Positions 13,062 to 39,052 of a DNA stretch of 64,000 bases are shown here, piece by piece (position 1 is the first letter of the stretch; each line of letters starts with the position of its first letter). Location: NCBI GenBank assembly GCA_015065085.1, contig SVQW01000005.1:66936-130935 (forward strand), in the 5' to 3' direction. The notes below the pieces were generated by a model that saw only the letters and a list, made by a program, of their open reading frames with translations, made no database searches and was not told the origin of the DNA. The DNA comes from Oscillospiraceae bacterium (GTDB lineage Bacteria > Bacillota > Clostridia > Oscillospirales > SIG627). The translations under genes were made by a program, and so were the position numbers.

Positions 13062-13148
13062 GCCGGAATGATGGAATTGGCAGACGTGCCGGACTCAAAA
13101 TCCGGTGGTAGCGATACCGTGCGGGTTCGACCCCCGCTTCCGGCACCA
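13062..13148 (+). tRNA. tRNA-Leu (anticodon CAA), CCA encoded
   Basis: The acceptor stem gccggaa/ttccggc pairs, and the anticodon loop is ct-CAA-aa. It has a long variable arm (class II), the T-loop ggttcgac and a terminal cacca. A hairpin terminator follows (agaaatccgaaccc..gggttcggatttct). Confidence 0.9.
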
Positions 13149-17491: not shown

Positions 17492-17653
17492 CACAACCGA
17501 ATATACGGGAGCTTGTATACAGGCTGAGAGGAAGGTGCGACCTTCGACCGAGAACCTGATTTGGATAATGCCAACGTAGGGATGCCTGATGCAAGAATGT
17601 TAGGAAAAACAAGCAATTTACGGAAGCTGCCAAATCGGCGGCTTCCTTTTTTT
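17492..17653 (+). promoter_or_regulatory. TPP (THI-box) riboswitch with terminator expression platform
   Basis: The conserved core is aggCTGAGAg...gACCTGATttGGATAATGCCaaCGTAGGGAtg. It is followed by the hairpin ggaagc..gcttcc plus ttttttt (17622-17653), directly upstream of thiS. Confidence 0.9.
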
Positions 17654-22079: not shown

Positions 22080-23384
22080 ATGAGAAGCTATACAACACAA
22101 ATGGATGCCGCAAGACGCGGTATCATCACTCCCGAAATGAAAGCCGTTGCGGCAAAGGAATACAGAACGCAGGAGGAAATAAGAGAGCTTGTTGCCAAAG
22201 GTCAGGCGGTTATTTGCGCCAATAAGCTTCACACTTGCTTAGAACCCAACGGTGTCGGCTCGATGCTGGGCACCAAGATAAACGTCAATCTGGGTGTATC
22301 ACGGGACTGCAAGGATTACGATATCGAGATGCAAAAGGTTATGACGGCGGTGGATATGGGTGCGCATGCCATTATGGACCTTTCTTCTCACGGCGATACA
22401 CAGCCCTTCCGCAGAAGGCTGACGGGAGAGTGTCCTGCCATGATAGGAACCGTACCCGTATATGACAGCGTGATTCACTACCAACGCGACCTTGCAACGC
22501 TTACGGCACGGGATTTTATTGATGTAGTCCGTCTTCACGCGGAGGACGGTGTGGATTTTGTCACTCTGCACTGCGGTATCACCCGCAAGACCATTGAGCA
22601 AATCAGAAAGCATAAGAGAAAAATGAATATCGTTTCCCGCGGCGGCTCATTGGTGTTCGCCTGGATGTGTATGACAGGAGAGGAAAACCCGTTTTACGAA
22701 TATTATGACGAAATACTTGACATCTGCCGTGAGTATGATGTGACCGTTTCGCTGGGTGATGCCTGCCGTCCGGGCTGTCTTGCGGATGCGGGCGATGTGT
22801 GCCAGATTGAAGAGCTTGTGCGTCTGGGCGAGCTTACAAAGCGCGCATGGGAAAAGGATGTTCAGGTCATGGTGGAGGGACCGGGGCACATGCCGTTGGA
22901 TCAGATAGAAGCCAACATGAAGCTCCAGCAGACGGTTTGCATGGGTGCGCCGTTCTATGTGCTGGGTCCCATTGTGACGGATATTGCTCCCGGCTATGAC
23001 CATATAACCTCCGCCATAGGAGGAGCGATTGCGGCGGCATCGGGCGCGGCATTCCTTTGCTATGTGACACCTGCCGAGCATCTGGCTCTGCCTGATGTTA
23101 ATGACGTGAAGCAAGGCATTATTGCCTCCAAAATTGCGGCTCATGCGGCGGATATCGCAAAGGAAATCCCCCACGCAAGAGATATTGATGACCGCATGGC
23201 TCAGGCACGGCGCAGGCTTGACTGGGAAGAACAGTGGGCATGCGCTCTCGACCCCGAAACAGCCAAGAAAATACGCAGTGAGCGTAAGCCCGAGCAGGAC
23301 GATACCTGCTCCATGTGCGGTAAGTTCTGTGCTGTGCGCAGTATGAACAAGGCGCTTAACGGGGAGTACATAGACATTCTGTGA
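22080..23384 (+). CDS. thiC: Phosphomethylpyrimidine synthase (radical SAM)
   Basis: 434 aa with [21 protein letters not shown] and the C-terminal CSMCGKFC cluster motif. Confidence 0.92.
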
Positions 23385-23416
23385 TTTTAATAATACGCTG
23401 ACGGATTGAAAAGACA

Positions 23417-23451
23417 AACAGCAGGTGATACCACATGTATCACCTGCTGTT
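23417..23451. terminator. Bidirectional terminator shared by thiC (+) and the TIR-NACHT-LRR gene (-); a copy of the AACAGCAGGTGAT hairpin
   Basis: aacagcaggtgatac-cacat-gtatcacctgctgtt, with a T-tract on both strands (aagcttttt on plus, gtcttttc on minus). Confidence 0.75.
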
Positions 23452-23458
23452 AAGCTTT

Positions 23459-26400
23459 TTATATGTATTCAATTATCTTTGTGTCGATATCTCCGAAAAT
23501 GACGGGGACAAGCTCTTTGAAATTGGCAGAAAGGAATATCTTTTCAAGTCCGTTACAGCCCTTGAAGGCACCCTTGCCGATGTTGCGCAGCTCCGCGCCC
23601 AGCGTAAGCTGTTTCAGCGAACGACAATTCCTGAAAGCGAAACGGCCGATGTCGCCTATACCGCTGTGCAGTCCGATGCGGACAAGAGAGGTACAGCCCT
23701 CGAAAAGATGGTTCCCCACATAGCTTACACCCTCGGGCAGGTCAAATTCCTTCAGCGAAACGCAATCCGCGAAAGTACAGTCCGCAAGGTGCTTTATACC
23801 TTTGGGCAGTGATATTGTCTCCAGTGAGGCACAGCCCGAAAATGCCGCGAATTTTATGCTTTCCACGGTGTCGGGCAATATGATTTGTCTGAGAGAACGG
23901 CAGTTGTTGAAAAGTCTGTTTTCCAGCTCTGTGAGGGGACATTCCAGCTTTGCGTATTCAAGGCTTTCACAGCCTTCAAAAACTCCGCCGTAGTCATAGT
24001 CCGCGTCTCTGTCATCGATGAGCTTTCCGCCCAGCACCTCAACTCCCGACGGCACGGTTATTTCGCGCAGACTTGCGCAACCGCTGAACGCGTTGCGGTC
24101 TATATAACTCAAACCGCGGGGGAGAGATATATGCTCCAGACTTTCACAGCCCTCAAAGGCGCTTGCACCGATTCGGGTAAGGCATTGCGGAAGATGTATT
24201 TCCTCCAGCGAAAAGCATCCGCCGAAGGCGTAATTTCCGACAGATTCCGTGCTGTCGCCAAGACAGACATATTTAAGTCTTGTGCAATCCTCAAAAACAG
24301 AGGTGCCCAGAGCTTTTATAAGAGGCGGAAGCACTGCTTCGCGCAGAGTATTGCATTTGGCAAATGCCTTTTCACCTATTTCCTCCAGCGCGTCGGGCAG
24401 CTTGATTTGGGTGAGCGAACGGCAGGAGCTGAAGGCATTTTTACCGATGCTTTTCACACCGTCATGCAGAATTGCCCGTGAAAGGCTTTCGCAGGCGAAA
24501 AAGGCGTGCTCGGGGATTGCCGTAACGGCGGTGGGGATAATTATTTCCTTAAGCGCACTGCAACCGCTGAATGCCGCTTCGCCCATTCTCTCAACGCCGT
24601 AGGGTAATTTCAGCTCAGCCAGAGAGACGCAGTCCTCAAAGGCATAGTCTCCCACCTCAATAAGGCTGTCGGGCAGATTTATGCTTTTCAGACTTTTACA
24701 GCCCGTAAAGGCATTGGCACCCACCGATATGATTTCGCCTTGTATCTCCACATTCTCAAGTGCATTGCAGGTGTCAAAGGCAGCCGACGCAATTTCCGTC
24801 ACACCGCGCGGTAAAACGATGCTTTTCAGCGAGAGACAGGAACCGAAAGCCATTTTACCGATATGCGTCAGACTTTGGGGCAGAGTTATCGCGGCGAGAT
24901 TTTCACATCCGCCGAAAGCGTTATCGCCGATTTTTGTAACACCCTCGGGGATTTTCACGCTTACTATCGAAAGGTCGTCACGGTAAGCATCGGGGGCGAT
25001 TTCGGTTGTGCCGTCGGGGATAATAAGCTCTCTTTCCTCAACGTCGATAAGGTTGAATTTAACCTGTGTGCCCTCGGGGATGCCCAGAAACGCTTCTTCG
25101 CCTCTGAAATTCCTGGGCAGAATAAGGGATGTTAGGTTTTCGCAATTTACAAATGTGTCCTTGCCCATCAGCAGAACGCTGTCGGGGACGGTTAATTCTT
25201 TCAGAGAAACACAGCCCGCAAACACACGGCTTTCCTTGGCAAAAAAATCCATTCCCACACATTCAAGTGTGTCGGGCAGGTTTACATATGACAGCGAGAT
25301 ACAGTTTTCAAAGGCGCACGGATGTATATCTGTGAGTCCTTGGGCAAAATCCAGCGATGTAAGGCTCTCACAGCTGTAAAAGGCACGGCTTTTCACTGTT
25401 TTGAGTGAGCGCGGCAGCTTTACTTCCCGAAGAGAATCACAGCCGGCGAAGGTGGCACGATTTATTGTATCTATACCGTCGGGAAGCTCTATGCGCTCAA
25501 GGCTTGTGCAGTCGCTGAACGCCATAAGTCCGATTTCACTGATGCTGTCGGGCAGTTTTATGCTTTTCAGACGACAGCAATTCTCAAATGCCTCGGCAGA
25601 TATTTTTGTCACACTGTCGGGCAGCTCCACACCGACCAGCGCTTCGCAGGAGGCAAAAAGCTGAGAGGGTATAAGAGTGACACCGTCGGGAATGCTGATT
25701 TTCATCAGCCGTTTACAGCCCATAAACGCCGAGCCTCCCAGCGCTTTTAGGGTGTTCGGCAGAGATAAAAAGGTTATGCCCTCGCATTTATTGAAGGCGT
25801 GTGCGTGTATCGCGGTAAGCATAGGCGGCAGATTTACCGTCATGATCCGCCTGCAATTGCTGAACGCACCGTCGGGTATCTCGGTGATTTTGTCGGGAAG
25901 GTTGAGCACGGTGAGGGAGGAGCAGTTGAAAAACGCCCAGTCTCCGATGGACTTCAGGCTTTGCGGGAATACAATCTCACTCAGCTCATCACAGCCGAAA
26001 AATGCCTTGTCGCCGATGCTTTCAAGACCCTCGGGTAAAACCACGTTCTGCAAGCCGACACATATTTCAAAGGCGCTTTTTCCGATAGTGCGGACTCCGC
26101 CTCCGATGTACACCTGCTCCAGATTGATGCGGTCGGCAAACATTCCGTCGGGAATTTCGTCGGTGTTTTCTATATACACTCTGTCGTAGAAATATACTAT
26201 ACCGTCCTTGTTGCAGGCGGCATCCGCCATAAGCACCGCGTGCAGACTGTAATCACGGTGCAGACGTGTGGTGTTTTCGGGCAGAATAATGTGTCGCAGT
26301 TCGGAGCGGTTGAAGGGAATATAGCTGATTTCGGTGTCATCGCCGTCCGACAGGAAAAGTCCGCACAGCTTATTGCAGGGCTTGGATGACAAAATTCGGG

Positions 26401-28717
26401 ATATTTCTTTACTATTATATATATCACAGGCAATGCCGATGTATTCATCGTTCAGGGTGTTGTACATACTGTGACGGTAAAGTCCCAGCTCGTCCTCAAA
26501 GGGATGTGTCATATGGCACAGCACACCGCATCCTCTGTCCATCCATGATTTTGTTTCGCGTATGCTGAAAAGTCGGGGATAAACGTCAGATTCGTCGGTT
26601 CGGTCGGTTTTTCCGGTGTAAAACAGCTCGCAAAGCCCGTAACGGACACCGTTTAAGGAGAGCTTTACGCCGTCAAAAATACTTTGCGTGCTTTCGCCCA
26701 TCAGCTCCTGCGCCGAAAATCTGCCGTTGAGTACGCACACATCGCGCACGAGAGCCGCCGCGGGAGCGTTGGCTTCAAGCTGTGCCAACGACTGCATAAG
26801 AGAGGTGTACAGCCCGTATTCGGGTATATACCAGAACAGCGGTCCGTAAGGCGGATAGGTTCCGTCGGCGGATTTTGTGAGAATGTCGCCCGCAAGAACC
26901 GTTTGCGCACATTCTTTATGGTTTACCAGCTCACAGCAGGCATCAAACAGCAAGGTGTATTCCTTTATGCCGAAAGTTGTTATAAGGCTGAAAAGCTGAT
27001 GTGCCGCATCGGCTTTAATAACGCTGTCCGCCTTGGCAAGATACAGCTTTATTACCGCTTCCCAGTAAGGGTCGCTGTAATGAGCGAACAGCTCCGACAC
27101 AGCCTCGGGCTTTCTGAGATTTCTGCTTCTGAACGAGGAGTTGAAGCAGTACACCGCCGTGAAGTATTCAAGGAACATTTTGTGGCTGAACTCGCCCTCT
27201 GTCACTATGGCGCGTTTTTGCAGATAACCCGACAAAAACCGCGTTCTTTTGGTCAGCGCCGCATCGTCATCGTCGTATTTTTCCCCCAGAACCTCCTCGA
27301 GAAGCTCGGTGAAGGTGTAATTTTCGCCCTCGGACAGCGTAACATACTTCTTGTAGGCGAAGCGGTTGAGAATATCGTTTATGTCGCTCTCCACCATTTC
27401 GCGGTACAACGGCAGAATGTCGCTCATGAGCTTTGTTTCCTCAAGATTGAGGGTTATTTTCAGCACTGCCTCCAGAATACCCGCAACGGTACGCGGAAGT
27501 GTGCCTGTTTTGTTGTAAATTGCGGCAAGCTGGCTGAGAAGCATCGGGTTGGAGCGGATTTCGCTGTCCAGCGCACTCAGACTGACGTAAAATGCTTCGC
27601 CCTTGCTTTGGTCACCCATAAGCACAAAAAGATTTGTGCCCAGCGTGTGTATATCATCATCGTCCAACGGCTCAAGCAGGTATTTTTTTATTTTGTAATC
27701 ACCGATAATAAGCTGATTAAGGTCCCTTTCACTGCGTCCCGTGAAAATAAGAGCGGTGTCGGTGCTGTTCAGCCTGAAATACTCCTCTGCTTTTTGGGCA
27801 AGCAAGGCGGTTGATGCACCGGTGGTTACCTCGTCCACACCGTCCAGCACGAGTATCAGCTTTTTTTCCGACAGCATTTTCCCGAAGTCATCGGAGGTCA
27901 AAAATGCTCTTTGCCCGCACACACTGTGGAATCGGCGGTACATCAGAGTGAAAAGGCTTTCATCGGATTTTGCCGCGTCGGCGCATTTTAAGGCTATTAC
28001 CACCTCGTTATTTTCGGCGGCGGCGTATATCTGATTGATGTAACGGCTTTTACCGCTTCCCGCCGCACCTCTGAGAAAGGATACCTGCCCAAGCTGCATC
28101 ATGGCGCGGGGAGAGTTTTCGGAAACTCCGTTGTCACAGGTTATTTTTCGGGGTACATAAAGCTTTGTAAAATCGAAGTTTATATCGCTGTCATCCTCAA
28201 AATCGCTGTACAGCGCGGAGATTTTTATATATTCCTCGCGCACGTTGCGTCGGTATTCGGTGTAAAAGCCCGACACAATGCTTTCTAACGCCTGGGCACA
28301 CACTTCTTCAAGCAGGTCTTTGCTTTTGTCCATGAGCACTGCGCTTATCTCGTATTTTCGGAAAACGGCGCATATATCGGATTCCTTGTAAAACCTCTCG
28401 GTGATGCAAACAGGAATGATGTGACTGCTCCACCACTCTCTTGTAGTGGGGTTTTCCAGCTTTTTGTATATCTCCTTAAGCTCCCAATCCATGCCCTCGC
28501 TGGAAAGGGAGTTTTCGGTTATGATTGCAATAAAAACGGTTGCCGAGGTGGCGGCGGCACGGCTCCAGTCCACGAAATTGCCGTAGCAGTGCATGTCCGA
28601 TTCCAATACCGTCACACCGCTCTCACTCAGACGGCGCTGTATGTCATCCTTTATTCGGGCATCCGCTCTCGTCCAGCTTATAAACACATCGCGTGGTCTT
28701 GTGTAAGTGTCAGACAT
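23459..28717 (-). CDS. TIR - NACHT (STAND NTPase) - BspA-type leucine-rich-repeat protein, 1752 aa; NLR-like candidate immune receptor
   Basis: TIR signature DVFISWTRAD..VFIAIITENSLSSEGMDWELKEI. Walker A is GAAGSGKS (28046-28069) and Walker B is LILVLDGVDEV (27827-27859), followed by SNPMLL. The last ~900 aa (23462-26160) are ~23-aa repeats of the form IG..AF..C..L..I.LP. I set the start at the ATG at 28717, which is preceded by GGGGGAA; the track start at 28828 adds 37 unlikely residues. Confidence 0.8.
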   Translation of the reverse strand: MSDTYTRPRDVFISWTRADARIKDDIQRRLSESGVTVLESDMHCYGNFVDWSRAAATSATVFIAIITENSLSSEGMDWELKEIYKKLENPTTREWWSSHIIPVCITERFYKESDICAVFRKYEISAVLMDKSKDLLEEVCAQALESIVSGFYTEYRRNVREEYIKISALYSDFEDDSDINFDFTKLYVPRKITCDNGVSENSPRAMMQLGQVSFLRGAAGSGKSRYINQIYAAAENNEVVIALKCADAAKSDESLFTLMYRRFHSVCGQRAFLTSDDFGKMLSEKKLILVLDGVDEVTTGASTALLAQKAEEYFRLNSTDTALIFTGRSERDLNQLIIGDYKIKKYLLEPLDDDDIHTLGTNLFVLMGDQSKGEAFYVSLSALDSEIRSNPMLLSQLAAIYNKTGTLPRTVAGILEAVLKITLNLEETKLMSDILPLYREMVESDINDILNRFAYKKYVTLSEGENYTFTELLEEVLGEKYDDDDAALTKRTRFLSGYLQKRAIVTEGEFSHKMFLEYFTAVYCFNSSFRSRNLRKPEAVSELFAHYSDPYWEAVIKLYLAKADSVIKADAAHQLFSLITTFGIKEYTLLFDACCELVNHKECAQTVLAGDILTKSADGTYPPYGPLFWYIPEYGLYTSLMQSLAQLEANAPAAALVRDVCVLNGRFSAQELMGESTQSIFDGVKLSLNGVRYGLCELFYTGKTDRTDESDVYPRLFSIRETKSWMDRGCGVLCHMTHPFEDELGLYRHSMYNTLNDEYIGIACDIYNSKEISRILSSKPCNKLCGLFLSDGDDTEISYIPFNRSELRHIILPENTTRLHRDYSLHAVLMADAACNKDGIVYFYDRVYIENTDEIPDGMFADRINLEQVYIGGGVRTIGKSAFEICVGLQNVVLPEGLESIGDKAFFGCDELSEIVFPQSLKSIGDWAFFNCSSLTVLNLPDKITEIPDGAFSNCRRIMTVNLPPMLTAIHAHAFNKCEGITFLSLPNTLKALGGSAFMGCKRLMKISIPDGVTLIPSQLFASCEALVGVELPDSVTKISAEAFENCCRLKSIKLPDSISEIGLMAFSDCTSLERIELPDGIDTINRATFAGCDSLREVKLPRSLKTVKSRAFYSCESLTSLDFAQGLTDIHPCAFENCISLSYVNLPDTLECVGMDFFAKESRVFAGCVSLKELTVPDSVLLMGKDTFVNCENLTSLILPRNFRGEEAFLGIPEGTQVKFNLIDVEERELIIPDGTTEIAPDAYRDDLSIVSVKIPEGVTKIGDNAFGGCENLAAITLPQSLTHIGKMAFGSCLSLKSIVLPRGVTEIASAAFDTCNALENVEIQGEIISVGANAFTGCKSLKSINLPDSLIEVGDYAFEDCVSLAELKLPYGVERMGEAAFSGCSALKEIIIPTAVTAIPEHAFFACESLSRAILHDGVKSIGKNAFSSCRSLTQIKLPDALEEIGEKAFAKCNTLREAVLPPLIKALGTSVFEDCTRLKYVCLGDSTESVGNYAFGGCFSLEEIHLPQCLTRIGASAFEGCESLEHISLPRGLSYIDRNAFSGCASLREITVPSGVEVLGGKLIDDRDADYDYGGVFEGCESLEYAKLECPLTELENRLFNNCRSLRQIILPDTVESIKFAAFSGCASLETISLPKGIKHLADCTFADCVSLKEFDLPEGVSYVGNHLFEGCTSLVRIGLHSGIGDIGRFAFRNCRSLKQLTLGAELRNIGKGAFKGCNGLEKIFLSANFKELVPVIFGDIDTKIIEYI

Positions 28718-28750
28718 ATCATGTTCCCCCGTATGTTTTATTACCTTTAT

Positions 28751-28779
28751 ATTATACATTCTTTTTTTGAAAAAATCAA
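28751..28779 (-). promoter_or_regulatory. Sigma-A-type promoter of the TIR-NACHT-LRR gene
   Basis: On the minus strand: TTGATT (28779-28774), a 17-nt spacer, then TATAAT (28756-28751), about 35 nt upstream of the ATG. Confidence 0.6.
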
Positions 28780-28884
28780 CACATGGTTTATTGCAAATTG
28801 CACGGCGCACTGCATTCGCAAAAAGCACTTTTACTAAAGAAAAAAGTTTTTTCTGTGCAAAATTGATAAATTTACTTTTTTCTA

Positions 28885-28913
28885 TTGCAATTATTTTGAA
28901 TTTGTGCTAGAAT
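28885..28913 (+). promoter_or_regulatory. Sigma-A-type promoter of the 1572-aa secreted protein gene
   Basis: TTGCAA (28885-28890), a 17-nt spacer ending in TGc (extended -10), then TAGAAT (28908-28913). Confidence 0.6.
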
Positions 28914-28995
28914 TATAACTGTATAGGTGCCGTTAGTGCAATTTGATATTGTTTTACGGCATATAAATAACTATAATTTTATAAGGAGAAGACTC

Positions 28996-31900
28996 ATGAA
29001 AAAGACTCTTTGTTTACTTACTCTTTCATTATTGCTCGTTGCGGCAATGATTTTGGGTGTAAGCGCTAAGGTCGAAAGCACAGATGTCGGTCTGTACATC
29101 CGTTTTGACAGTGCTGAAAGCATTGCTCAGTATGTGACAGATGCAACCAGCGGCATCAACATGGATTTCGATGCAGAAAAGGGCGCTATGCACTACACCG
29201 CGGCAGCATCCGACCAATATTTCAAGGTTGGTAATTTTACTTCCTTTGATGCTGTTCAGTACCCCTACATGCGTATCACCTATATGGCAGACAGGAAGAT
29301 AGACTCCATTTACCTTATCGCAAACGGTACCAGCATTCTTAATGCTCTTAGCGACGCAGGTATGGTTGCAGGCACCGATAAGTGGAGCCGCTTCTTATAC
29401 GACTGGAGAAAGATTTCGGGAGTAGGAACCGAGTCCTGCACTCTCAATGACCTCAGATTAGACATACCCAACGACAATGTCGCGGCTGAATTGTGGATTT
29501 ACGACATCGGCTTCTTCAAGACCATTGAAGCGGCTCAGGCGTACAAGCACAACCAGTCCAATGTCGTACTTGACATGACCGACCCTGCAGTTGTTGACAG
29601 AACAAGCGGTACCTCGGGCGGTAAGTGGTATTATGACGAGGAGCTGGGTGCGGCTAAATTCGTTCACGACCAGGCTACATATATCCCCGATAACCCCGAG
29701 ACCGAGGCGAATGACCCCGTAAACGTTGATGCCCGTGCAAGAATAGACGTGGCTGTTGAAGAATACTTCAGCCTTGAAAATTACCCCTACGGTAACATTA
29801 TGGCACTGGCAGGTAACACCGATTATACCTACGCTCAGGCACAGGCAATGTCCGAACAGGAAAGAAATGAGACTGTCACAGGTGTTATCCCTTACAGACA
29901 TTACCTCATCAACGAGGTGTCTAATTCAAACTTAAAAGCTGATATCTGGAGCGGATGCGGCGGCGGAACCCAGTACCTGATCAATAACAAGGGCTTTACC
30001 TGGCAGTTCACCGAGTTCGACCTGAGCGCAAATGTTTCCGGCAAAAACGGCTCTGTCGTTGTACGCCACGTATTTGACCCTATCGATAAGAATGCTGACA
30101 CAACAGGTAAGGAATACAGAGCGTATAAGTACATCGCTTACTACGCAACCGCAGAGGAAGCGGCACTGGAAACTCAGGGTGCTCCCCGCGGACTTGAGGG
30201 TGTTATGCCCGCAGATGCGGCAAACACCGGTAAAATTACCGGTCTTGATGCCGGCCTTTCCTATGAATACCGTGTGAGCGGTAACGCTAACGCTTACACC
30301 GCAGTAGCAGCAGGTGCAACCGAAATTACCGGTCTTGCAGGCGGTAAGACCTACGACGTACGTCTTGCAGGCGAAGAGGGCGTTAAGAACCCCGGTTATG
30401 CCGCAGAAGTTACCGTACCTGCTTACACCAAGTTTGTTATCAACTCCGTTGAGGGTGTTAACGATGCAGTTATCACCGAGACCTCTGCCGGCAACTGGAA
30501 GGTAGAGCTTCCCATCGGTACAAATCTTTCTGCCGTTAAGCTCAATACAACCGCATACTACGGTGCAAATAATGCCACCGTTACGGCTTACGGCGATTCC
30601 AACCGTGCATCCATCGGAGCACTGAATGTTTCCGAAAACGTGGCAAACGAGACCCCCGTTGAGCTGGCTCTTTACTATACAAGACAGCTTTACATGCCCA
30701 TAACCGTTACCTTCGCTCTCAAGGGCGCAGAGGGCGGTGCACAGAGTGTTGTAGAACTCATTGCCAATCAGCTTGAAGATGTAGAAATCAATGAACAGAT
30801 TTTTGTAGGTATTACTACTTCCGCTGATGCAAAAGCTGCTATTGAAGCAGCCGCAGGTATTGCCATTACCGAAGCAAGCCTTCCCGGTCTTGACATTGAA
30901 GTTTCGGTTGAAAGCTTTGAAGCCGCTACCGCAGGTACCGCTGAGGATATCGACGGTGAGGACCAAAGCCTTACCTATAAGTTTATCGTATCCTATCAGG
31001 GCGCAACTGACGAAACCGAAATCGCAACTCTTGCAGTTCCCGCCGCTCACTTCCGTGTGCTGTGGAAGTTCAACGACCAGGAGCTTGCAAATAAGTTCGG
31101 AGTATCAGGTCCCGGCTTTGTTAAAACCGCTGACAACAAGCTTCCCATTATCAAGGACGGCGATAAGTACTATATGCGTGCCGAAATTGCCGAGGGCGGC
31201 AAGAACGGCGGCGACGGTTATATAATGTGGACAGCCGCAAGTGATGATGCTGTAAAGAGCGGAGACTACACCGCTATGCTCAACGCAGACGATTATCCTT
31301 ACGTTGTATTCAGCTACCGTTCCTCCGAAGCTATGCCCAGCGCATCTTCAGGTTCAGGTATAGGCATCTACTGGGCAACCTCCTTCAACATCCTCAACAA
31401 CACCTTTGTTGGCGATGCAGATAATCCTGTAAGCGGTATCTACTACGGCTACAAGTGGGCACGCAACCAGGGCTACTGGAATGTTACCGGTGACGCTGCA
31501 CCCAAGAACACAGCAGGAACCAAGCTTGTTATCGATTATCCCAACGGCACAAGCGGTGTTAACCTGGCATCCAGCGGTGCTGTTGAAAATCCCGACGGCT
31601 CTATCAACTACAATGCAACTGTTAAATACCCCTGGAGAAGCGACCTTGTTTCCTGGAGAATGGATATCTCCAAGAGCGCTAACGTTGCCGAGGGCGAGTA
31701 CTTTGACCTCGAATATGTCGCATTCTTTGCAACCAAGGCAGAAGCCGAAGCTTTTGCAGGCGAAGTTGCATTCCCCTTTGATGGAATTGGCAAGGAAGTT
31801 GTCGAAGTTTACACATTACCCGATATTGACGGTCTCGAGGCAGGAACCGAAGAAGCTGTTGCCAACGCAGTTGAAGCAGACTTTGTCGAGCAACTTACCG

Positions 31901-33714
31901 CAGGCGGATACGCCTTTACAAGTGTACATGTTGACACCGTAAGCTACACCGGCTATAACCTTGCGGAAAGCGAGAATGGCGAGCTGAAGTACACCGTTAC
32001 CGTTATAGGCGAAGGTCCTCTGGGCGACCGCGATACTTATACCTCCGCAGTTAAGACCACCGTTATCACCGTTCCCGATCTGGACGTACAGGATGCAATC
32101 GATGAGATCAATGCACTTAAAGGTACCGACGTATTTGTCGTAAAGGGAATTAAGACCGAGCAGCAGGCTCTTGATTATATTGCTGAGGTTATTGCACCTA
32201 TCATCGACAGGTACAACGGTATTGAGTTCGAGATAACAGGCAGAGTCGAATTTGTTGCTCCTGCTGAAGGTGAAACTGGAAACTTCTCCTTTGAAGTAAG
32301 ATATGGCAACAACTATGTTACAGAAGATATCCCCATGGTCCTTATAGGTCCTGCAAAGCCCATTATCTTCAACTTTGCAAACCCCATTACCAGAACCAAC
32401 TTCACCTTTACCGCCACCGGCAGAGGAAAGACCATTACGGCTGTTGAAAATGAGGACGCACTGGGCGGCGCTGTTGCCAAGTATGTAAGACCTGCTACCG
32501 GCCCCGAGTTCAACCTCAACACCAAGATGGGTATTAACGGTATGCCCGCTATCGAGGAGCTGAGCGATTATCAGGTAATTGTATATCGTTACAAGGCTCC
32601 CAATAACCTCCAGAACCAGATTTACTACTACACCGACAGCTACACCGGCGGTAATATGTACTACAACCTGCCTCTGGCAGCGGGAACCACTGATGAATGG
32701 TACACCCACTATGTTGAAACCGGCAAGGGCGGTGCGGAAACTCCCGCGAACTCTGTTGTAGGCGACGGAAGCTGGGCTAACGCTCTTGAATCCATCCGTT
32801 TTGACTTCTACCGTGCAGGCGCAAATCACAGCCTTGAAAACAATACTCTGGAAATCGACTACATCGGCTTCTTCGCAGACCGTGAACAGGCTGACGCATT
32901 CGTGGCTAACCCCACTATGGCTGACTACAACCCCGCAGCTCTGAAGGCACAGTATCAGGCTTACCTTGACATCGTCGACGATGTTGAAAACACCGAGTAC
33001 ACCGTTACCTCCGCAATGAATGAGGGCGGCTTTGTAGCTGATGCTCAGTATATTGTTGACAAATACTTCGGTCTGCCCGAGGATACCGAGTACTACATTG
33101 TTATCAAGGACGACTTCACACAAGACGAAGTAACAGGCAAGAGCGACACCGAATACGATGACTTTACCGCCATCGACGGTCAGTTCACCTTCACCGTTGC
33201 ATTTGCAAACCACACTACCAACGGCAATGTTGTTGAGTCCAAGGAATTCACCGTAAATGTAATCGCCGACCACCGCAGAGTTGATTTGTACGAAAATGGC
33301 ACCGATGAAACAATCGGTAAGTTCATCCGTATAGGTACTCTCATGGATAAGGATTGGATGGCTAACGTTAAGGACAACGGAACTCTCACCTACGGTATGC
33401 TCATCACCTCCAAGGCGGTTTGGGATGAAATAAAGGCTGATTACGAGGATGGCTTTACTCACGAGGTTGCAGGTATACTCAATGCAGGTGAGGATAAGTT
33501 TGTTCAGGATGTAGAGTTTGTAAACATCTATGCTCAGGACAATGATAAGAACACCATTACCCACACTGCACGTATCGCAGTTCCCGCGGGTCAGGAGGAT
33601 ACATTCCTTTATGCACGTGCTTATGTTAAGTACACCTTCGACGGTGTTGAAGTTATCGACTACTTCGGCGCAAGCGAAGTAAGCTTCAACAATCCCGACC
33701 CCAACGCAAGATAA
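28996..33714 (+). CDS. Giant secreted protein (1572 aa) built from an unnamed repeated module plus FN3/Ig-like segments; paralogue of 51388-54945
   Basis: Signal peptide MKKTLCLLTLSLLLVAAMILGVSA, with AAGGAG before the ATG at 28996. Module ends recur four times (..YDIGFFKTIEAA, YIAYYATAEEAA, YVAFFATKAEAE, YIGFFADREQAD). No cell-wall anchor motif was seen. Confidence 0.8.
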   Translation: MKKTLCLLTLSLLLVAAMILGVSAKVESTDVGLYIRFDSAESIAQYVTDATSGINMDFDAEKGAMHYTAAASDQYFKVGNFTSFDAVQYPYMRITYMADRKIDSIYLIANGTSILNALSDAGMVAGTDKWSRFLYDWRKISGVGTESCTLNDLRLDIPNDNVAAELWIYDIGFFKTIEAAQAYKHNQSNVVLDMTDPAVVDRTSGTSGGKWYYDEELGAAKFVHDQATYIPDNPETEANDPVNVDARARIDVAVEEYFSLENYPYGNIMALAGNTDYTYAQAQAMSEQERNETVTGVIPYRHYLINEVSNSNLKADIWSGCGGGTQYLINNKGFTWQFTEFDLSANVSGKNGSVVVRHVFDPIDKNADTTGKEYRAYKYIAYYATAEEAALETQGAPRGLEGVMPADAANTGKITGLDAGLSYEYRVSGNANAYTAVAAGATEITGLAGGKTYDVRLAGEEGVKNPGYAAEVTVPAYTKFVINSVEGVNDAVITETSAGNWKVELPIGTNLSAVKLNTTAYYGANNATVTAYGDSNRASIGALNVSENVANETPVELALYYTRQLYMPITVTFALKGAEGGAQSVVELIANQLEDVEINEQIFVGITTSADAKAAIEAAAGIAITEASLPGLDIEVSVESFEAATAGTAEDIDGEDQSLTYKFIVSYQGATDETEIATLAVPAAHFRVLWKFNDQELANKFGVSGPGFVKTADNKLPIIKDGDKYYMRAEIAEGGKNGGDGYIMWTAASDDAVKSGDYTAMLNADDYPYVVFSYRSSEAMPSASSGSGIGIYWATSFNILNNTFVGDADNPVSGIYYGYKWARNQGYWNVTGDAAPKNTAGTKLVIDYPNGTSGVNLASSGAVENPDGSINYNATVKYPWRSDLVSWRMDISKSANVAEGEYFDLEYVAFFATKAEAEAFAGEVAFPFDGIGKEVVEVYTLPDIDGLEAGTEEAVANAVEADFVEQLTAGGYAFTSVHVDTVSYTGYNLAESENGELKYTVTVIGEGPLGDRDTYTSAVKTTVITVPDLDVQDAIDEINALKGTDVFVVKGIKTEQQALDYIAEVIAPIIDRYNGIEFEITGRVEFVAPAEGETGNFSFEVRYGNNYVTEDIPMVLIGPAKPIIFNFANPITRTNFTFTATGRGKTITAVENEDALGGAVAKYVRPATGPEFNLNTKMGINGMPAIEELSDYQVIVYRYKAPNNLQNQIYYYTDSYTGGNMYYNLPLAAGTTDEWYTHYVETGKGGAETPANSVVGDGSWANALESIRFDFYRAGANHSLENNTLEIDYIGFFADREQADAFVANPTMADYNPAALKAQYQAYLDIVDDVENTEYTVTSAMNEGGFVADAQYIVDKYFGLPEDTEYYIVIKDDFTQDEVTGKSDTEYDDFTAIDGQFTFTVAFANHTTNGNVVESKEFTVNVIADHRRVDLYENGTDETIGKFIRIGTLMDKDWMANVKDNGTLTYGMLITSKAVWDEIKADYEDGFTHEVAGILNAGEDKFVQDVEFVNIYAQDNDKNTITHTARIAVPAGQEDTFLYARAYVKYTFDGVEVIDYFGASEVSFNNPDPNAR

Positions 33715-35200: not shown

Positions 35201-36079
35201 ATGTTCGGATATATAAGACCCCGTGAGAGCGAGCTTCTTGTCAAGGAGCTGGAGCTTTACAAGGCGGTGTACTGCGGGCTTTGCAGGGCACTCAAAAAAT
35301 TTGTTTCGCCCTTTATGCCGCTTACTCTCAGCTATGACGGTACATTGCTTGCCGTTTTCCGCATGGCGATAATGCGTATGCCCCCGAAAATCGAAAAGGG
35401 ACGGTGTATCGCTTCGCCTTTTAAAAAGAAATGCCGTGTGTGCTCATGCGAAAACGATGCTTTGTGTTACAGTGCGCGCGCTTCGGCGGTGCTGGTGTAT
35501 TATAACCTCAAGGACGATATAAAGGACAGGGACAAGGGCTTTTTGAAACGTCTTTTGTGCCGTGTGCTTCTGATGCTTGTTTCCCCGTCGGTGAAGAAAA
35601 TCATCGGGACGGACGAAAATATGTCGGCACTGAGTAAAGGCGTTGAAGACTGTCTTGAAAGACTGAGCATAATGGAAAAGGACAACAGCGTTAATATTGA
35701 TACTCTTGCCCAAACCTCGGGCGAGATACTTGCGCTGACGGCGTGTACGGGGCTTTGCGGTGAAAGCCGTGAAATTGCCGAAAAATACGGCATGAGTATC
35801 GGAAAATGGCTGTATATCGCCGATGCGCTTGACGACATGGAGCACGACCAAAAGAAAAAATGCTTTAATCCGCTCATAGCCCGTTTCGGCAGTGCCGGAG
35901 CGGTGAACGAAAACTCGGAAATGATAAGGGCGGTGCTGAGCCGCTATTCCGCCGATGCAATGGAACAGCTGCAAAGACTCAGCCCCACCTGCTATAATAA
36001 CCTTATTGCCAACATAACTTCACTCGGACTTGAAAGTGCAATTTATAAGATATTCAACAACCGAAAGGAAAATAAATGA
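35201..36079 (+). CDS. Conserved clostridial protein, DUF5685-like
   Basis: The N-terminus [33 protein letters not shown] matches my recollection of the DUF5685 start (MFGY..P....L...E...Y...YCGLC). The function is unknown. Confidence 0.5.
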
Positions 36080-36684
36080 AAGATCCGTATCATGTTCTGG
36101 GCGTAAGCCCCGATGCTTCTGTGGAGGAAATCAAAAAGGCTTACAGAGAGCTGGCAAAAAAATATCATCCCGATGCAAATGTGGATAACCCCCTGAAGCA
36201 TCTTGCCGATGAAAAGATGAAAGAAATAAATGAGGCGTACGATTATATAATAAATCTGCGTGAAAAGGGCGGTACTTCCTCGCAAAACGGTAACACCCAC
36301 TATTCGGGAACGGCGTCCGGTACGCCTGATATCACCCGCGCCCGCACTCTTATTTCGCAGGGACGGTATGCCGAGGCGGGTGTTGTACTCAACAGTATAC
36401 CCGTGCATCTGCGCAATGCCGAGTGGTATTATCTTAACGGTACAATCAAGGCAAACGGCGGAATGTATTTTGACGCCCGTTCCAGCTTTGAGGAGGCGGT
36501 GCGCCGAGACCCGTCCAATCCCATGTACCGTCAGGCGCTTAACAATATGTCACGAAACGGTGCCTACGGCGGATATACCGGCTCAAATATGAACTCCTGC
36601 AGCGGATGCGATATGTGTACGGGACTTATGTGCGCCGACTGTCTGTGCGAATGCTGCGGCGGAGACCTGATAAGGTGCTGTTGA
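36076..36684 (+). CDS. J-domain protein with a Cys-rich C-terminal tail
   Basis: [31 protein letters not shown] carries the HPD motif. The C-terminus is [29 protein letters not shown] 4-nt overlap links it to the upstream gene. Confidence 0.8.
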
Positions 36685-36685
36685 T

Positions 36686-37204
36686 ATGAAAAAATCCAAA
36701 AAAACCGCACTGGGCGGTATTATTACCGCACTGTGCGTGGTAATTCTGTTTCTGGGCAGCTTTTTTTCCACCCTCGACCTTTCAATGTCCGCGCTGGCGG
36801 GAATGCTTCTCGTGCTGGCGGTTGTTGAAATGGGTGATAATTGGGCGTGGGGCATTTTTGCCTGCGCTTCGGTTGTAAGCATTCTTGTTATTCCTTCAAA
36901 GCTTGTGGTGTGCTTTTTTGTGTGCTTTATGGGGTGGTATCCCATAGCAAAACGAAGCTTTGAACGGCTTCATCCCGTGCTTGCGTGGTGCGTCAAGATA
37001 AGTACCTTTAACGTGTTTCTCACCGTGGCGATATGGGCGGTGAACTTTGTGTTTAAGCTCAGCGTGTCCGACTTTTCATTTTCGTGGGCGCTGTACGGGC
37101 TGGGAAATGTGACCTTTGTGCTGTACGATATAGCCCTTTCAAAAATCATTCTCTTGTATCTTGTGAAGCTGAGAAATATACTGAAAATCAATAAATTACT
37201 ATAA
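36686..37204 (+). CDS. Small polytopic membrane protein (about 5 TM), function unknown
   Basis: Hydrophobic segments run throughout. It starts 1 nt after the J-domain gene stop. Confidence 0.6.
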   Translation: MKKSKKTALGGIITALCVVILFLGSFFSTLDLSMSALAGMLLVLAVVEMGDNWAWGIFACASVVSILVIPSKLVVCFFVCFMGWYPIAKRSFERLHPVLAWCVKISTFNVFLTVAIWAVNFVFKLSVSDFSFSWALYGLGNVTFVLYDIALSKIILLYLVKLRNILKINKLL

Positions 37205-37269
37205 AATGAAGAAAGCCGTGGGATATCTGTGGCTTTTGAAGTGATTTGCGTTGAAATTATGAAAATATC

Positions 37270-37298
37270 TTGCGAAAAATGATTATTGGTGGTATAAT
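37270..37298 (+). promoter_or_regulatory. Sigma-A-type promoter of the lipoprotein cassette
   Basis: TTGCGA (37270-37275), a 17-nt spacer, then TATAAT (37293-37298). Confidence 0.55.
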
Positions 37299-37336
37299 AA
37301 CAAACAATAATTTTATAAAAAGGGGAAAACCAACTT

Positions 37337-38665
37337 ATGAAGAGAATGATGATTGTTTTATGTTTTATGTTATTTATTACAGGATGTAATAAACATACTG
37401 ACATTTCAAATCCTTACATTGAACTTGCGAACGAATACATTGCATCCGGTGAATACACTTTGGCTGCCGATGTCTTACAGAAAGGACTGGAAAAGGAAAA
37501 CACAAAAGAACTTTCTGAAAAGCTAACCGAAGTACTAAGGCTACAGGTTGAAGTTGAAGCGGAAAACGGTAAAGACCAAGTTGATGTAAACGAGGAAGCT
37601 TTTGAACCTGTAGTTGAAAACGAAGATGTTGAGAATTATTATTATAGAAACGAGGATCCGTCAAACAAATTTATATCCGGAGAAATAACAATAGTTCCCA
37701 AAGACGTATATTGGGAATTTGGTAGTTTGATTGCAAATTGCTACGTGCTTAACGGCTTTTCCTACAAGGTTAATAACATAACAGTAGATTCGCTGGGATT
37801 TTACAATGAAGACGGTTATATAGCTGGCGGTGGATGCGGAATTTTACAAGGGCTGAGTCTGGAGCCGTTTTCGTACTGTGAGTGGGCTTTTACAATGCCT
37901 CCCGAATGCGTGGTTAAACCCGGAGCAATATTGAAAAACGGAGTGGATTGCGAAGGTAGTATTACGCATAGCGCTGAGTACGATTTGTCGAAAGCGAGTG
38001 GAGTACTGGCTAAGGCTGGTTTGTCCGAACAGGACTTCAGGAATATGTGCACGCCTTTGCTGAGCAGTGGATACTATGCATGGAACTACAACCGAGTTGG
38101 CAGTAGTAAAACCCACGACTATGACAGATACGTTGTGGCCAACGGTGAACAGTATTATGCTTCTTTAGAAGGAGATGATACGGTGCAAAAGGCTATTTCG
38201 AAATGGGATGAAATTTGCCTTGATTATGAAACCGGTGGCAAAAGATACTATAAATCAGGGCAGTCGGGTCCTTATTCGTATTACGATTATCATGTGTACG
38301 AAAAGTATGGTACGCTTGATTCGTATTTGAAGGATACTGTATATGCGCCAAAAGGCTGCTCTATAATATACGATTATTCCAAAGACATATTTGAAAAAAT
38401 GAAAGAATATCCGAACGAATATCTCGGAACCCCTTTTGTCTTGATTGACTGTGACATCGAATCGTGTGGAAATAATATTTATGATTCCGACAACTTCGTT
38501 GACACTGAAATAGCAATAAATGATATTAGAGATGATGTGCATTCTCCAAATTTGATAACCGATAACGATTATTATCTTTATGTAATATTCAATGGAACAT
38601 ACGTATGTTATGATGGTGATATTGGCTTGAAATTCTCTTTGTTGTCTCTCGAAAAGATAGATTGA
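37337..38665 (+). CDS. Lipoprotein, function unknown (visibly AT-richer than its neighbours)
   Basis: Lipobox MKRMMIVLCFMLFITG-C. I saw no recognisable catalytic motifs. Confidence 0.7.
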   Translation: MKRMMIVLCFMLFITGCNKHTDISNPYIELANEYIASGEYTLAADVLQKGLEKENTKELSEKLTEVLRLQVEVEAENGKDQVDVNEEAFEPVVENEDVENYYYRNEDPSNKFISGEITIVPKDVYWEFGSLIANCYVLNGFSYKVNNITVDSLGFYNEDGYIAGGGCGILQGLSLEPFSYCEWAFTMPPECVVKPGAILKNGVDCEGSITHSAEYDLSKASGVLAKAGLSEQDFRNMCTPLLSSGYYAWNYNRVGSSKTHDYDRYVVANGEQYYASLEGDDTVQKAISKWDEICLDYETGGKRYYKSGQSGPYSYYDYHVYEKYGTLDSYLKDTVYAPKGCSIIYDYSKDIFEKMKEYPNEYLGTPFVLIDCDIESCGNNIYDSDNFVDTEIAINDIRDDVHSPNLITDNDYYLYVIFNGTYVCYDGDIGLKFSLLSLEKID

Positions 38666-38767
38666 TTCTACATAATACGAAAGAGGAAAAGTGCTTATAC
38701 GAATGTTTTAGCTCCATATCTCATTTTGTGAAATCAAGAAACATACTTAAAATCAATAAACTGCTGT

Positions 38768-38797
38768 AAAAAACCCGCGGATGTCCGCGGGTTTTTT
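38768..38797 (+). terminator. Strong rho-independent terminator
   Basis: aaaaacccgcgg-atgt-ccgcgggtttttt. Confidence 0.85.
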
Positions 38798-38800
38798 ATA

Positions 38801-39052
38801 ATGCGCAATTCGCAATGCGCAATTCGCAATTGATGTTGAAAACCGCAAAAGCGGTTTTCTTCAATTTGTCATGTTGAGCGTAGTCGAAACATCTTTAAAA
38901 TACTTTATGGTTTAAGATTCTTCGACTACGTGCTGCGCACTTCGCTCAGAATGACAATAATGAAGAAAGCCGTGGAATTTTTCCACGGCTTTCAACCATA
39001 ATTGCGCATTGCGAATTGAGCGAAGCGCATTGCGAATTGCAAATTGCGAATT
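38801..39052. repeat. Composite intergenic repeat with a nested MITE-like element (38868-38955)
   Basis: The order is a CAATTCG arm (38801-38831), hairpin gttgaaaaccgc..gcggttttcttcaa, then the nested element. That element has inverted ends gtcatgttgagcg / cgctcagaatgac. After it come hairpin gaagaaagccgtgg..ccacggctttc and an AATTGCG arm (38998-39052). Confidence 0.8.

Follow-up and report, generated by a model that had tools for sequence, protein, structure and literature searches.

A candidate single-gene TIR-NACHT receptor with a BspA-type LRR sensor in gut and rumen Clostridia

Bacterial NACHT proteins are known to defend their hosts against phages, including protection of E. coli, and the catalogue of these proteins (Kibby et al., 10.1101/2022.07.19.500537) contains bNACHT16 of Vibrio campbellii, in which NACHT is combined with LRR, while its Table S1 lists TIR_2 and NACHT together with FGE-sulfatase, GUN4 or TPR. 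Neither the string "TIR(_2)+NACHT+LRR" nor LRR_5 was found in this table. A single-gene TIR-NLR encoded by P4-like satellites of E. coli protects against many phages (Rousset et al. 2022, PMC9122126). Sensors named in the main text of a recent paper on Avs proteins (Nature 2026, PMC13581612) are mostly TPR-like, WD40 or FGE-sulfatase, and LRRs are not mentioned in it; according to an earlier survey, prokaryotic NLRs "do not display LRR repeats". A combination of TIR, NACHT and LRR_5 was not found described in the literature.

The window analysed here, a stretch of 64,000 nucleotides from an Oscillospiraceae bacterium (contig SVQW01000005.1), contains an intact open reading frame of 1752 codons plus stop on the reverse strand (23459..28717). 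The earlier note described it as a TIR-NACHT-LRR protein and a candidate "undescribed STAND anti-phage system", and all coordinates given in it were reproduced. The second part of this definition needs correction, since proteins of this kind have already been described as bNACHT and TIR-NLR; it is the union of TIR and NACHT with LRR_5, and LRR_5 as the sensor, that is new. An identical protein (P0006) occurs, with unchanged gene surroundings, on 20 public contigs. The anatomy proposed previously, with TIR as effector, NACHT as switch and LRR as sensor joined in one cytoplasmic polypeptide, is supported by profiles, motifs and predicted folds.

The TIR domain occupies amino acids 10-165 (28223..28690, reverse strand). 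It was recognised by Pfam TIR_2 with 36.8 bits at a cut-off of 28 and was detected in all 32 relatives. The best match of a TIR profile built from the family was the TIR domain of RPS4 (1e-8), and structures of Cat1, TIR-1, SNC1 and SARM1 were also retrieved. The glutamate of the W-x-x-E pattern, pointed out before at 28481..28483 (reverse strand), is Glu79. All relatives compared, 30 of 30 in one set and 32 of 32 in another, have this residue, and in the profile alignment it stands in the column occupied by Glu of RPS4 (WCVRELEKI), SNC1 (WCLNELVEI), Cat1 (WCWDELEQA) and TIR-1 (WVHKELKCA). These residues we take to be catalytic in the four NADase TIRs, and Glu79 is a candidate catalytic glutamate of the same active site. 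TIR domains are also able to produce signalling nucleotides rather than deplete NAD+.

The nucleotide-binding domain of NACHT type (amino acids 206-400, 27518..28102) includes Walker A GAAGSGKS (amino acids 217-224, 28046-28069) and Walker B LILVLDGVDEV (amino acids 287-297, 27827-27859), all on the reverse strand and exactly where they had been placed earlier, as well as a sensor-1-like TGR (amino acids 326-328) and an NPMLL motif (amino acids 390-394). Its motifs are invariant at G220, G222, K223, D292, D295, E296, T326, R328 and P391 across 32 relatives. Walker A has the form GxxxxGK[ST], and 45 of 49 relatives conform to the stricter variant GxxGxGK[ST]. The initial assignment to NACHT had been based on the hhhhDGxDE form of Walker B, and this holds: the signature D[GAS]hDE, represented by DGVDE (D292-G-V-D-E296), is found in 49 of 49 full-length relatives, with G293 conserved in at least 90%. 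This is the signature that sets NACHT apart from other STANDs (Koonin & Aravind 2000, quoted in Kibby et al., 10.1101/2022.07.19.500537). Pfam NACHT (PF05729) gave 19.0 bits for the window protein, which is below the cut-off of 26.7; among 32 relatives it matched 29 with E of 1e-3 or lower, the best value being 9.4e-15. NB-ARC matched just 7 of the 32 (best E 1.9e-5).

The sequence-only search of PDB with a profile of five N-terminal sequences was weak (P-loop of VirB11, and NLRP1 at E=0.05), so that a fold search and a TIR-only profile were needed. The AF2 model of amino acids 1-816 (pLDDT 73.7) had nearly all of its top 30 Foldseek matches among NLRP3, NOD2, NLRP1, NLRP2 and NLRP7 (E from 2e-8 to 3e-5), with NLRP3 and NOD2 at the top for the NACHT domain and TMt of 0.55-0.63 against NLRP3 NACHT constructs; the plant TIR-NLR RPP1 was also among the top matches, and E was about 1e-7 to 1e-8 for NLRP3 NACHT, NOD2 and RPP1 taken together. 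The profile and structure comparisons proposed in the earlier note placed TIR_2 above its cut-off, recognised LRR_5 and matched the NACHT part by its fold. They also removed the "unassignable" region of about 300 amino acids in the middle of the protein, as the model and Foldseek assign amino acids ~400-815 to the NACHT module, which continues there through HD1, WHD and HD2. Helical domain 1 and the winged-helix domain (amino acids 401-560, 27038..27517, reverse strand) were modelled as helical with pLDDT 80-90. The WHD motif FSHKMFLEYFTA was found at amino acids 510-521, where F510 and H512 are invariant. His512 (codon 27182-27184) is the equivalent of the conserved H443 of NLRC4, and the motif aligns with FAHLCLQEFFAA of NLRP1, in a weakly scoring stretch. 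The subsequent conserved helical region, designated mid2 (amino acids 561-815, 26273..27037, reverse strand), is HD2-like, runs into the repeats and has a confident model only to about amino acid 700; its mean pairwise identity (0.39) equals that of the nucleotide-binding domain. Judging from the D[GAS]hDE signature, the WHD histidine and the modelled NBD-HD1-WHD-HD2 fold, the NTPase is assigned to the NACHT clade of STAND.

The C-terminal half is built of BspA-type repeats, whose number had been estimated as roughly three dozen units of ~23 amino acids. The count came to 34 canonical units with an exact period of 23 amino acids and about two degenerate ones, covered by Pfam LRR_5 (PF13306) in nine stretches with E=1e-231 and arranged as two arrays on the reverse strand. 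The first array (amino acids ~848-1200, 25118..26176, pLDDT >90) has about 15 units and the closing cap ILPRNFRGEEAF. The second (amino acids ~1225-1727, 23537..25045) has about 21 units and matches 4fs7 with E=1e-15 and TMt 0.73. It is followed by a family-conserved C-terminal cap and tail (23462..23536), modelled as a helix and a strand and ending with NFKELVPVIFGDIDTKIIEYI; the consensus SxxFxxxIxRIFGxIDxxIIxFI was found here in 32 relatives. For the LRR model as a whole (pLDDT 87) Foldseek returned 4fs7, an LRR protein of B. ovatus, together with 4gt6 and 4h09. The structural matches include the cell-surface LRR proteins 4gt6 and 4fdw, in line with the previous remark that this class of LRR normally belongs to surface proteins. 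Nevertheless, hydropathy scanning of the entire protein revealed neither a 19-residue segment averaging above 1.36 nor an N-terminal signal sequence, that is, no segment long enough for the signal peptide, whose absence had been noticed before, or for a transmembrane helix. Signal peptide, transmembrane helix and anchor are all absent, and the protein is cytoplasmic. Family-wide identity of the LRR part is 0.32 versus 0.35-0.39 in other domains. Hypervariability of LRRs among close relatives was considered and not accepted, because the differences are too few to judge and in one close pair the trend is opposite, the N-terminal part being more diverged than the LRRs. Recent expansion of the repeats, or their high internal conservation, was also rejected, as Tandem Repeats Finder registered nothing at the DNA level across 23400-28800.

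The family was collected by an exhaustive HMMER search, which gave 136 matches below 1e-30. At least 49 clusters (50% identity) have the full architecture, and all of them come from metagenome-assembled genomes of gut or rumen Clostridia. Among 185,579 species representatives the distribution is patchy, with 28 loci, every one again in gut or rumen Clostridia. A word-index search had suggested only four relatives, and the resulting impression of extreme rarity was discarded as a sensitivity artefact in view of the HMMER data. The number of LRR_5 repeats varies from 5 to 34 across the family. The TIR-NACHT core also occurs with N-terminal Sel1 repeats in place of LRRs, and mid2 together with LRR_5 is also present in relatives that have tandem TIRs and no NTPase. 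Such modularity is typical of conflict systems. Searches of IMG/VR viral contigs, INPHARED phages and PLSDB plasmids revealed no family member, and carriage by mobile elements was therefore rejected.

Based on this set of features one can assume, with somewhat better than even confidence, that the product of the gene is an immune receptor of NLR type (STAND), cytoplasmic and made of a single polypeptide, which acts by abortive infection through TIR-mediated cleavage of NAD+. At rest, the NACHT module would be kept closed, with ADP bound, by the WHD-HD2 region and the two BspA-type arrays. This lock would be released once the LRR solenoid captures a foreign protein, for which a conserved protein of phages is the most plausible candidate, and the NACHT module would then exchange its nucleotide and oligomerise. 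As the N-terminal TIR domains gather, composite active sites could form around Glu79, where NAD+ would be cleaved, and the loss of NAD+ would halt the infected cell ahead of phage progeny, with no need for a partner gene. The ligand, oligomerisation, NADase activity and protection from phages are all inferred for the window protein.

The same receptor logic could also serve a different output, if the TIR domain generated a signal (a cADPR isomer or an ADPR-derived nucleotide, as in Thoeris) for an unlinked effector. Signalling nucleotides are indeed made by the TIRs of ThsB (Thoeris) and of plant TNLs, a few relatives gave weak PADLOC matches to ThsB or SAVED-TIR, and in two loci (L002 and L030) extra TIR proteins adjoin the family members. 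However, all-against-all BLAST of 186 neighbours from 31 loci disclosed no conserved partner gene, so that the idea of such a partner was abandoned and the gene is regarded as a single-gene unit. No receiver of ThsA, SLOG or SAVED type was noticed among the homologue neighbours, and a TIR joined without intermediary to a STAND oligomeriser agrees with direct NADase action, as in SARM1-like assemblies. We therefore consider a signal-generating TIR rather unlikely.

Genomic surroundings bear on another interpretation, which we likewise regard as having a small chance of being correct: an NLR-like death or stress switch may control cell fate in response not to phages, but to a cue from the host or from bacteria, for example toxins of competing bacteria, plasmids, damage, or signals of development in a sporulating Clostridium. 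The window gene resides in a chromosomal housekeeping context, between the thiamine operon with its convergent thiC and a gene for a surface protein, and a Pfam scan of 21 neighbouring ORFs revealed no mobile or defence gene, which agrees with the preceding statement that this is not an obvious defence island. The flanking "cell-surface genes" mentioned along with it proved to be one secreted protein of 1595 amino acids, which falls into no recognised family, and a glycosyltransferase; the former, divergently encoded, had no relative at any homologue's locus. Most of the 139 genes located no more than three genes away from homologues in 30 loci are housekeeping, by a raw count, and the defence-type ones, which speak for an immune receptor, are few: four TIR_2 proteins, one AbiEii, components mad3/6/8 of MADS, and RmrA-like and PD-T4-6-like matches. 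The LRRs, moreover, display no visible hypervariability. On the other hand, a TIR domain with an intact catalytic Glu is an effector of conflict type, whereas non-immune STANDs usually have DNA-binding or signalling outputs rather than NADases. The family has a patchy distribution and a modular build, and all bacterial TIR-STAND or bNACHT proteins for which we found experimental tests act against phages. Finally, the possibility of a BspA-like surface adhesin with incidental resemblance to TIR and NTPase, suggested by the surface proteins that the C-terminus matches best in NCBIfam and among structures (HupY/LrrG adhesin, Gli349, 4gt6, 4fdw and PcpA) and by the secreted product of the divergent neighbour, is extremely improbable and effectively refuted by the absence of export signals (signal peptide, transmembrane helix or anchor), by the TIR beta-A strand beginning already at residue 10, by TIR and NACHT catalytic motifs invariant across 32-49 relatives and by the clear fold match to NLRP3 and NOD2.

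Returning to the NLR-type immune receptor, its closest counterparts are bNACHT proteins, which are likewise single polypeptides with an N-terminal effector, central NACHT (D[GAS]hDE and the WHD histidine) and a C-terminal repeat sensor, TIR being included among effectors and LRR among sensors by Kibby et al. However, their LRRs belong to LRR_8, LRR_4 or ImmLRR and occur in Proteobacteria, Spirochaetes and others, while the window family is confined to Clostridia of gut and rumen, with much longer arrays that reach about 36 units. PADLOC, to which the earlier note had referred for a check, offered no system model for the window protein, with PDC-S53 at E=0.033 as the sole match, though it may lack models of bNACHT; for 32 relatives it gave one match to Avs4 (1.5e-4) and a few scattered weak ones based on TIR only. 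The TIR-NLR of E. coli similarly unites, within a single gene, a TIR effector and an NLR-like STAND. It sits, however, in a mobile satellite hotspot, while the window gene is found on the chromosome in surroundings where no mobile gene was seen, and no sequence match was detectable in phage and plasmid collections. To our knowledge, the sensor of the E. coli protein is not an LRR_5 array. In PMC13581612 Avs proteins appear as effector-STAND-sensor receptors recognising conserved phage proteins, which is the scheme suggested here, and the sensor Avs7/Dsr1 is described there as common to STAND and NTPase-less proteins, in parallel with mid2-LRR_5 of the NTPase-less TIR relatives. A clade with at least 50% of members bearing an annotated defence effector is treated in that paper as defence-associated, and the window family would belong to this category if TIR is on its effector list. 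For the window protein itself a role in anti-phage defence is deduced rather than observed.

Similarity to plant TNLs (RPP1, ROQ1, RPS4), noticed from the very beginning, concerns the order of TIR, NTPase and LRR, and the TIR of RPS4 is the best match of the family profile. By analogy, the two probably share the logic in which a ligand-induced oligomer forms the TIR NADase. The parallel goes no further than analogy, because the NTPase is of NACHT type and not NB-ARC, with NLRP3 and NOD2 as the best folds. The LRRs are of the 23-amino-acid BspA type as opposed to plant-specific ones, and no C-JID-like domain was seen in the window protein, which is an independent assembly and not an orthologue. 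Animal NLRs (NLRP3, NOD2, NLRC4 and NLRP1) are the best structural match for amino acids ~200-700 (NBD-HD1-WHD-HD2), have the WHD motif FxHxxFxEYxxA in common with it and carry their LRR sensor after HD2 as well, but differ in the effector (PYD/CARD instead of TIR) and in the LRRs (ribonuclease-inhibitor type versus LRR_5), the identity being 10-13%. The same 23-amino-acid repeat and solenoid fold are typical of BspA-type proteins from gut bacteria and protists (4fs7, 4gt6, 4h09, PcpA and TpLRR). According to PDB descriptions 4gt6, 4fdw and 4fd0 are located on the cell surface, while the array of the window protein is cytoplasmic and fused to TIR-NACHT.

A broader generalisation, which we put forward only tentatively, is that gut and rumen Clostridia independently assembled a TIR-NBS-LRR receptor by recruiting BspA-type LRRs as an intracellular sensor, and that this sensor is portable and also works with TIRs lacking NTPase. 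If so, the NBS-LRR layout has a further independent origin besides plants and animals, and a repeat seen elsewhere in extracellular adhesins, the BspA-type LRR, also recognises patterns inside the cell, as a solenoid that can reach about 36 units. Operation of mid2 and LRR with NTPase-less TIRs would then define LRR_5 arrays as a portable class of cytoplasmic sensors missed by current defence catalogues. Should the protein be active, LRR_5 arrays would join the sensor types of bacterial STAND immunity, and bacteria would provide a model with the complete TIR-NOD-LRR layout, so that a question familiar from plants, how an LRR solenoid gates the TIR NADase via NOD, could be studied in a prokaryote. 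The gene also points to a defence candidate, passed over by PADLOC, in Clostridia of gut and rumen, the uncultured and little-studied group to which it is specific.

Expression signals described for the gene were found in place. The sigma-70-like promoter TTGATT-17 nt-TATAAT (28751..28779, reverse strand) is the top promoter-like match within 23300-29000, with 10 of 12 positions, and the ribosome-binding site GGGGGAA (28724..28730, reverse strand) precedes the ATG at 28717 by 6 nt. The NCBI model MBE6688705.1, labelled merely "TIR domain-containing protein", begins 14 codons further upstream, within the -10 box; the start at 28717 is supported by homologues, which begin about 10 amino acids ahead of the DVFISW strand. 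No compositional sign of foreign DNA was seen, GC content being ~0.50 in the gene and 0.49-0.52 in its flanks. Downstream of the gene a hairpin with a 15-bp stem and T-runs on both strands (23417..23451) forms a bidirectional terminator common to the convergent thiC.

The 1752-aa ORF at positions 23459-28717 (−) of the window is translated without interruption and has its own promoter TTGATT-17-TATAAT (28779-28751, −), which matches at 10 of 12 positions and is the top sigma-70-like site of the region, as well as the RBS GGGGGAA on the same strand, 6 nt ahead of the ATG codon. Between its stop codon and the convergent thiC there is a 15 bp hairpin (23417-23451), which has T-runs on both strands. 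Given this promoter, RBS and terminator hairpin, the gene, further referred to as the NLR gene, is a monocistronic unit; it is intact, single and transcription-competent. The N-terminus of the product is hydrophilic, with the first TIR strand DVFISW starting from residue 10, and since mean hydropathy is at most 1.36 in every 19-residue segment, there is neither a signal peptide nor a membrane helix, and the protein is cytoplasmic. The NCBI model MBE6688705.1 (Ruminococcaceae/Oscillospiraceae MAG) is 14 residues longer and named ‘TIR domain-containing protein’. All coordinates of the earlier note were correct, placing the P-loop GAAGSGKS at aa 217-224, Walker B LILVLDGVDEV at aa 287-297 and the codon of Glu79 at 28481-28483.

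The TIR-NACHT-LRR domain architecture proposed for this protein is almost certain. At its N-terminus, Pfam TIR_2 gave 36.8 bits, above its cut-off of 28, and a profile of the TIR region made from 30 diverse relatives matched solved TIR domains of RPS4 (1e-8), Cat1, C. elegans TIR-1, SNC1 and SARM1. Glu79 is the sole invariant acidic residue of this region in the 30 relatives, and in the profile alignment its column coincides with Glu of RPS4 (..WCVRELEKI), SNC1 (..WCLNELVEI), Cat1 (..WCWDELEQA) and TIR-1 (..WVHKELKCA). Both the TIR fold and the glutamate in the NADase position, as suggested earlier, are therefore supported. The glutamate of this column is the established catalytic residue of NADase TIRs, which makes Glu79 a candidate for the same role.

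Assignment of the next module as NACHT rests on family, motifs and fold. For the window protein alone the Pfam NACHT score (19.0 bits) is below the cut-off of 26.7, yet 29 of 32 full-length relatives are recognized at E<=1e-3, the best value being 9.4e-15. NACHT is distinguished from other STANDs by the Walker B signature D[GAS]hDE (Kibby et al., bioRxiv 10.1101/2022.07.19.500537), which is represented here by D292-G-V-D-E296 and was found in all 49 full-length relatives. T326 and R328 of IFTGR are invariant among relatives, as are P391 (NPMLL) and F510/H512 (FSHKMFLEYFTA), the latter motif aligning weakly with the winged-helix motif FAHLCLQEFFAA of NLRP1. IFTGR presumably corresponds to the ..TSRP sensor-1 region of NACHT motifs. 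The AlphaFold2 model of aa 1-816 (mean pLDDT 73.7, 80-90 across aa 190-600) best matched NLRP3 NACHT constructs (TMt 0.55-0.63), NOD2 and the plant TIR-NLR RPP1 in PDB, followed by NLRP1, NLRP7 and NLRP2. The similarity of this predicted fold to NLRP3 and NOD2 identifies the middle region, which had been left unassigned, as HD1-WHD-HD2 of the NACHT module. Its last part (aa ~700-815), modelled less confidently, leads into the repeats.

The C-terminal part was identified by Pfam LRR_5 with E=1e-231. Its repeats, 34 with a ..F..C..L core spaced at exactly 23 residues and about two more of degenerate form, make up one array at aa ~848-1200 and another at aa ~1225-1727. Both arrays are closed by an NF.G.E-type cap, and the protein ends with the family-conserved tail IFGDIDxxIIE[FY]I. 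The model of aa 817-1752 (pLDDT 87.1) best fitted 4fs7 (E=1e-15, TMt 0.73) and then 4gt6, 4h09, PcpA and TpLRR, so that its fold resembles that of BspA-type LRR proteins of gut bacteria. In the close pair P0004/P0007 of the homologue set divergence amounts to 16% of positions over the N-terminal 830 aa but only 8% in the LRR part. A hypervariable sensor would show the reverse pattern, and recombination may be responsible. Another homologue, P0001, carries a hydrophobic, Lys-rich insertion (..KKITLILYKILLVITSFVKTKS..KRKQSKRKEQHK..) in the pre-LRR linker (aa ~860-930), absent in other members.

Thus, the anatomy described in the earlier note was substantiated by profiles, motifs and folds, but the term ‘undescribed system’ was an overstatement, since the kind of system is established: bacterial NACHT proteins defend against phage, with TIR listed among effectors, LRR among sensors and bNACHT16 combining NACHT with LRR (Kibby et al., bioRxiv 10.1101/2022.07.19.500537), and a single-gene TIR-NLR system was validated (Rousset et al. 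2022, PMC9122126). What is new compared with published data is the combination of TIR, NACHT and LRR with an LRR_5 sensor. Table S1 of Kibby et al. contains TIR_2+NACHT fused to FGE-sulfatase, GUN4 or TPR and, in the copy searched, neither TIR+NACHT+LRR nor LRR_5. Sensors named in the main text of a 2026 survey of 589 STAND clades (PMC13581612) are mostly TPR-like, WD40 or FGE-sulfatase, with LRRs unmentioned there; according to an earlier survey, prokaryotic NLRs ‘do not display LRR repeats’. A literature search for BspA or LRR_5 joined with TIR-NACHT or TIR-STAND found nothing relevant. Resemblance to plant TNLs is an analogy, as the NTPase is of NACHT type and the LRR class is different; independent assembly is the best interpretation of the fusion. 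A complete TIR-NOD-LRR layout with an unexpected sensor class is thereby present in a bacterial protein, and its hosts, uncultured gut Clostridia, are outside the coverage of current defence finders.

The apparent rarity of the family (four relatives by word-index search) was a sensitivity limit: exhaustive HMMER search with the N-terminal profile against 1.84 billion representatives gave 136 matches below 1e-30. Among the best 150 matches, 49 clusters (50% identity) have the full layout, in which a conserved HD2-like helical region (mid2) links NACHT to LRR_5; they are 1013-1908 aa long, with 5-34 repeat cores each. The window protein itself occurs in the searched collection on 20 contigs in an identical context. 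A scan of one genome per GTDB species, reaching close relatives only because it used two peptide patterns, registered 28 loci. All of them belong to MAGs of Clostridia from the gut of goat, sheep, roe deer, yak, rabbit and human, which are assigned to Acutalibacteraceae, Oscillospiraceae or Christensenellaceae or are unclassified. The family is modular and patchy. P0092, P0097, P0108 and about 40 more HMMER matches have 8-14 N-terminal Sel1 repeats before the TIR-NACHT core and no C-terminal LRR, so that the sensor is exchanged and the domain order inverted. Others have a long spacer between TIR-NACHT and LRR_5, with a total protein length of up to 2231 aa. Finally, NTPase-less TIR-LRR_5 proteins (L028:9110-13858, L029:8849-13420, L030:8846-12493, L031:6499-10278; P0055-P0075) lack Walker A/B but keep the same mid2 and LRR_5 module after ~420 aa in which two TIR-like modules are combined with a Sel1-like helical stretch, reminiscent of the shared sensor of Avs7/Dsr1.

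The TIR with its candidate catalytic Glu, NACHT with all nucleotide-handling motifs and the long LRR solenoid are conserved in the family, and abortive infection directed against phages or other MGEs through TIR activity is a moderately probable function. By analogy with STAND/NLR receptors and TIR NADases (bNACHT, Avs, plant TNL resistosomes, SARM1), a ligand bound by the LRRs would relieve autoinhibition and the NACHT module would oligomerise, clustering TIRs into active sites that would cleave NAD+ and arrest the infected cell. No partner gene is conserved, which makes production of a signalling nucleotide by the TIR less likely than direct NAD+ depletion.

No neighbour family recurs across the 31 homologue loci. 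In the window, the NLR gene lies between the thiamine operon thiS-F-G-H-E-D-C, controlled by a TPP riboswitch (17496-17599, +) and ending at thiC (23384), and a divergent gene for a 1595-aa secreted protein (28927-33714, +) with a signal-peptide-like N-terminus (MKKTLCLLTLSLLLVAAMILGVSA), which has no Pfam match or known family and no relative in any homologue locus. Genes for a glycosyltransferase, DUF5685 and a DnaJ-domain protein come after it; the ORFs of the latter two (292 and 202 aa; 35201-36684, +) overlap by 4 nt. This pair is of note solely in view of the host DnaJ, which mediates sensing by bNACHT25. GC content of the NLR gene equals that of its flanks. A low-GC segment (37000-39000; 0.38 versus about 0.49) holds a 442-aa ORF (37337-38665), which, like the adjacent 172-aa ORF (36686-37204), has no Pfam match. 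Other scanned ORFs, located at 39-55 kb and in one case at 13 kb, are metabolic, cell-envelope or without Pfam match; a 941-aa protein carrying an SLH domain at its N-terminus (47913-50738, +) and a 1185-aa ORF without Pfam match (51388-54945, +) are large proteins, probably of the cell envelope. There is a match to the Gut-1 sRNA at 288-360 (−), and one tRNA at 13062-13145 (+). Family members were absent from IMG/VR, INPHARED phages and PLSDB plasmids. The 139 proteins encoded within three genes of a homologue are mostly housekeeping, with a defence- or mobility-like minority (raw counts) of four TIR_2 proteins and one AbiEii, as well as MADS components, RmrA-like and PD-T4-6-like matches and NikA. 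One of the TIR_2 proteins, 378 aa long with the TIR at its C-terminus, is encoded at L002:2187-3323 (also in L003), in L002 co-directionally and 25 nt upstream of P0001. At L030:14191-15834 a 547-aa protein, again with the TIR at its C-terminus, is located two genes from the family member.
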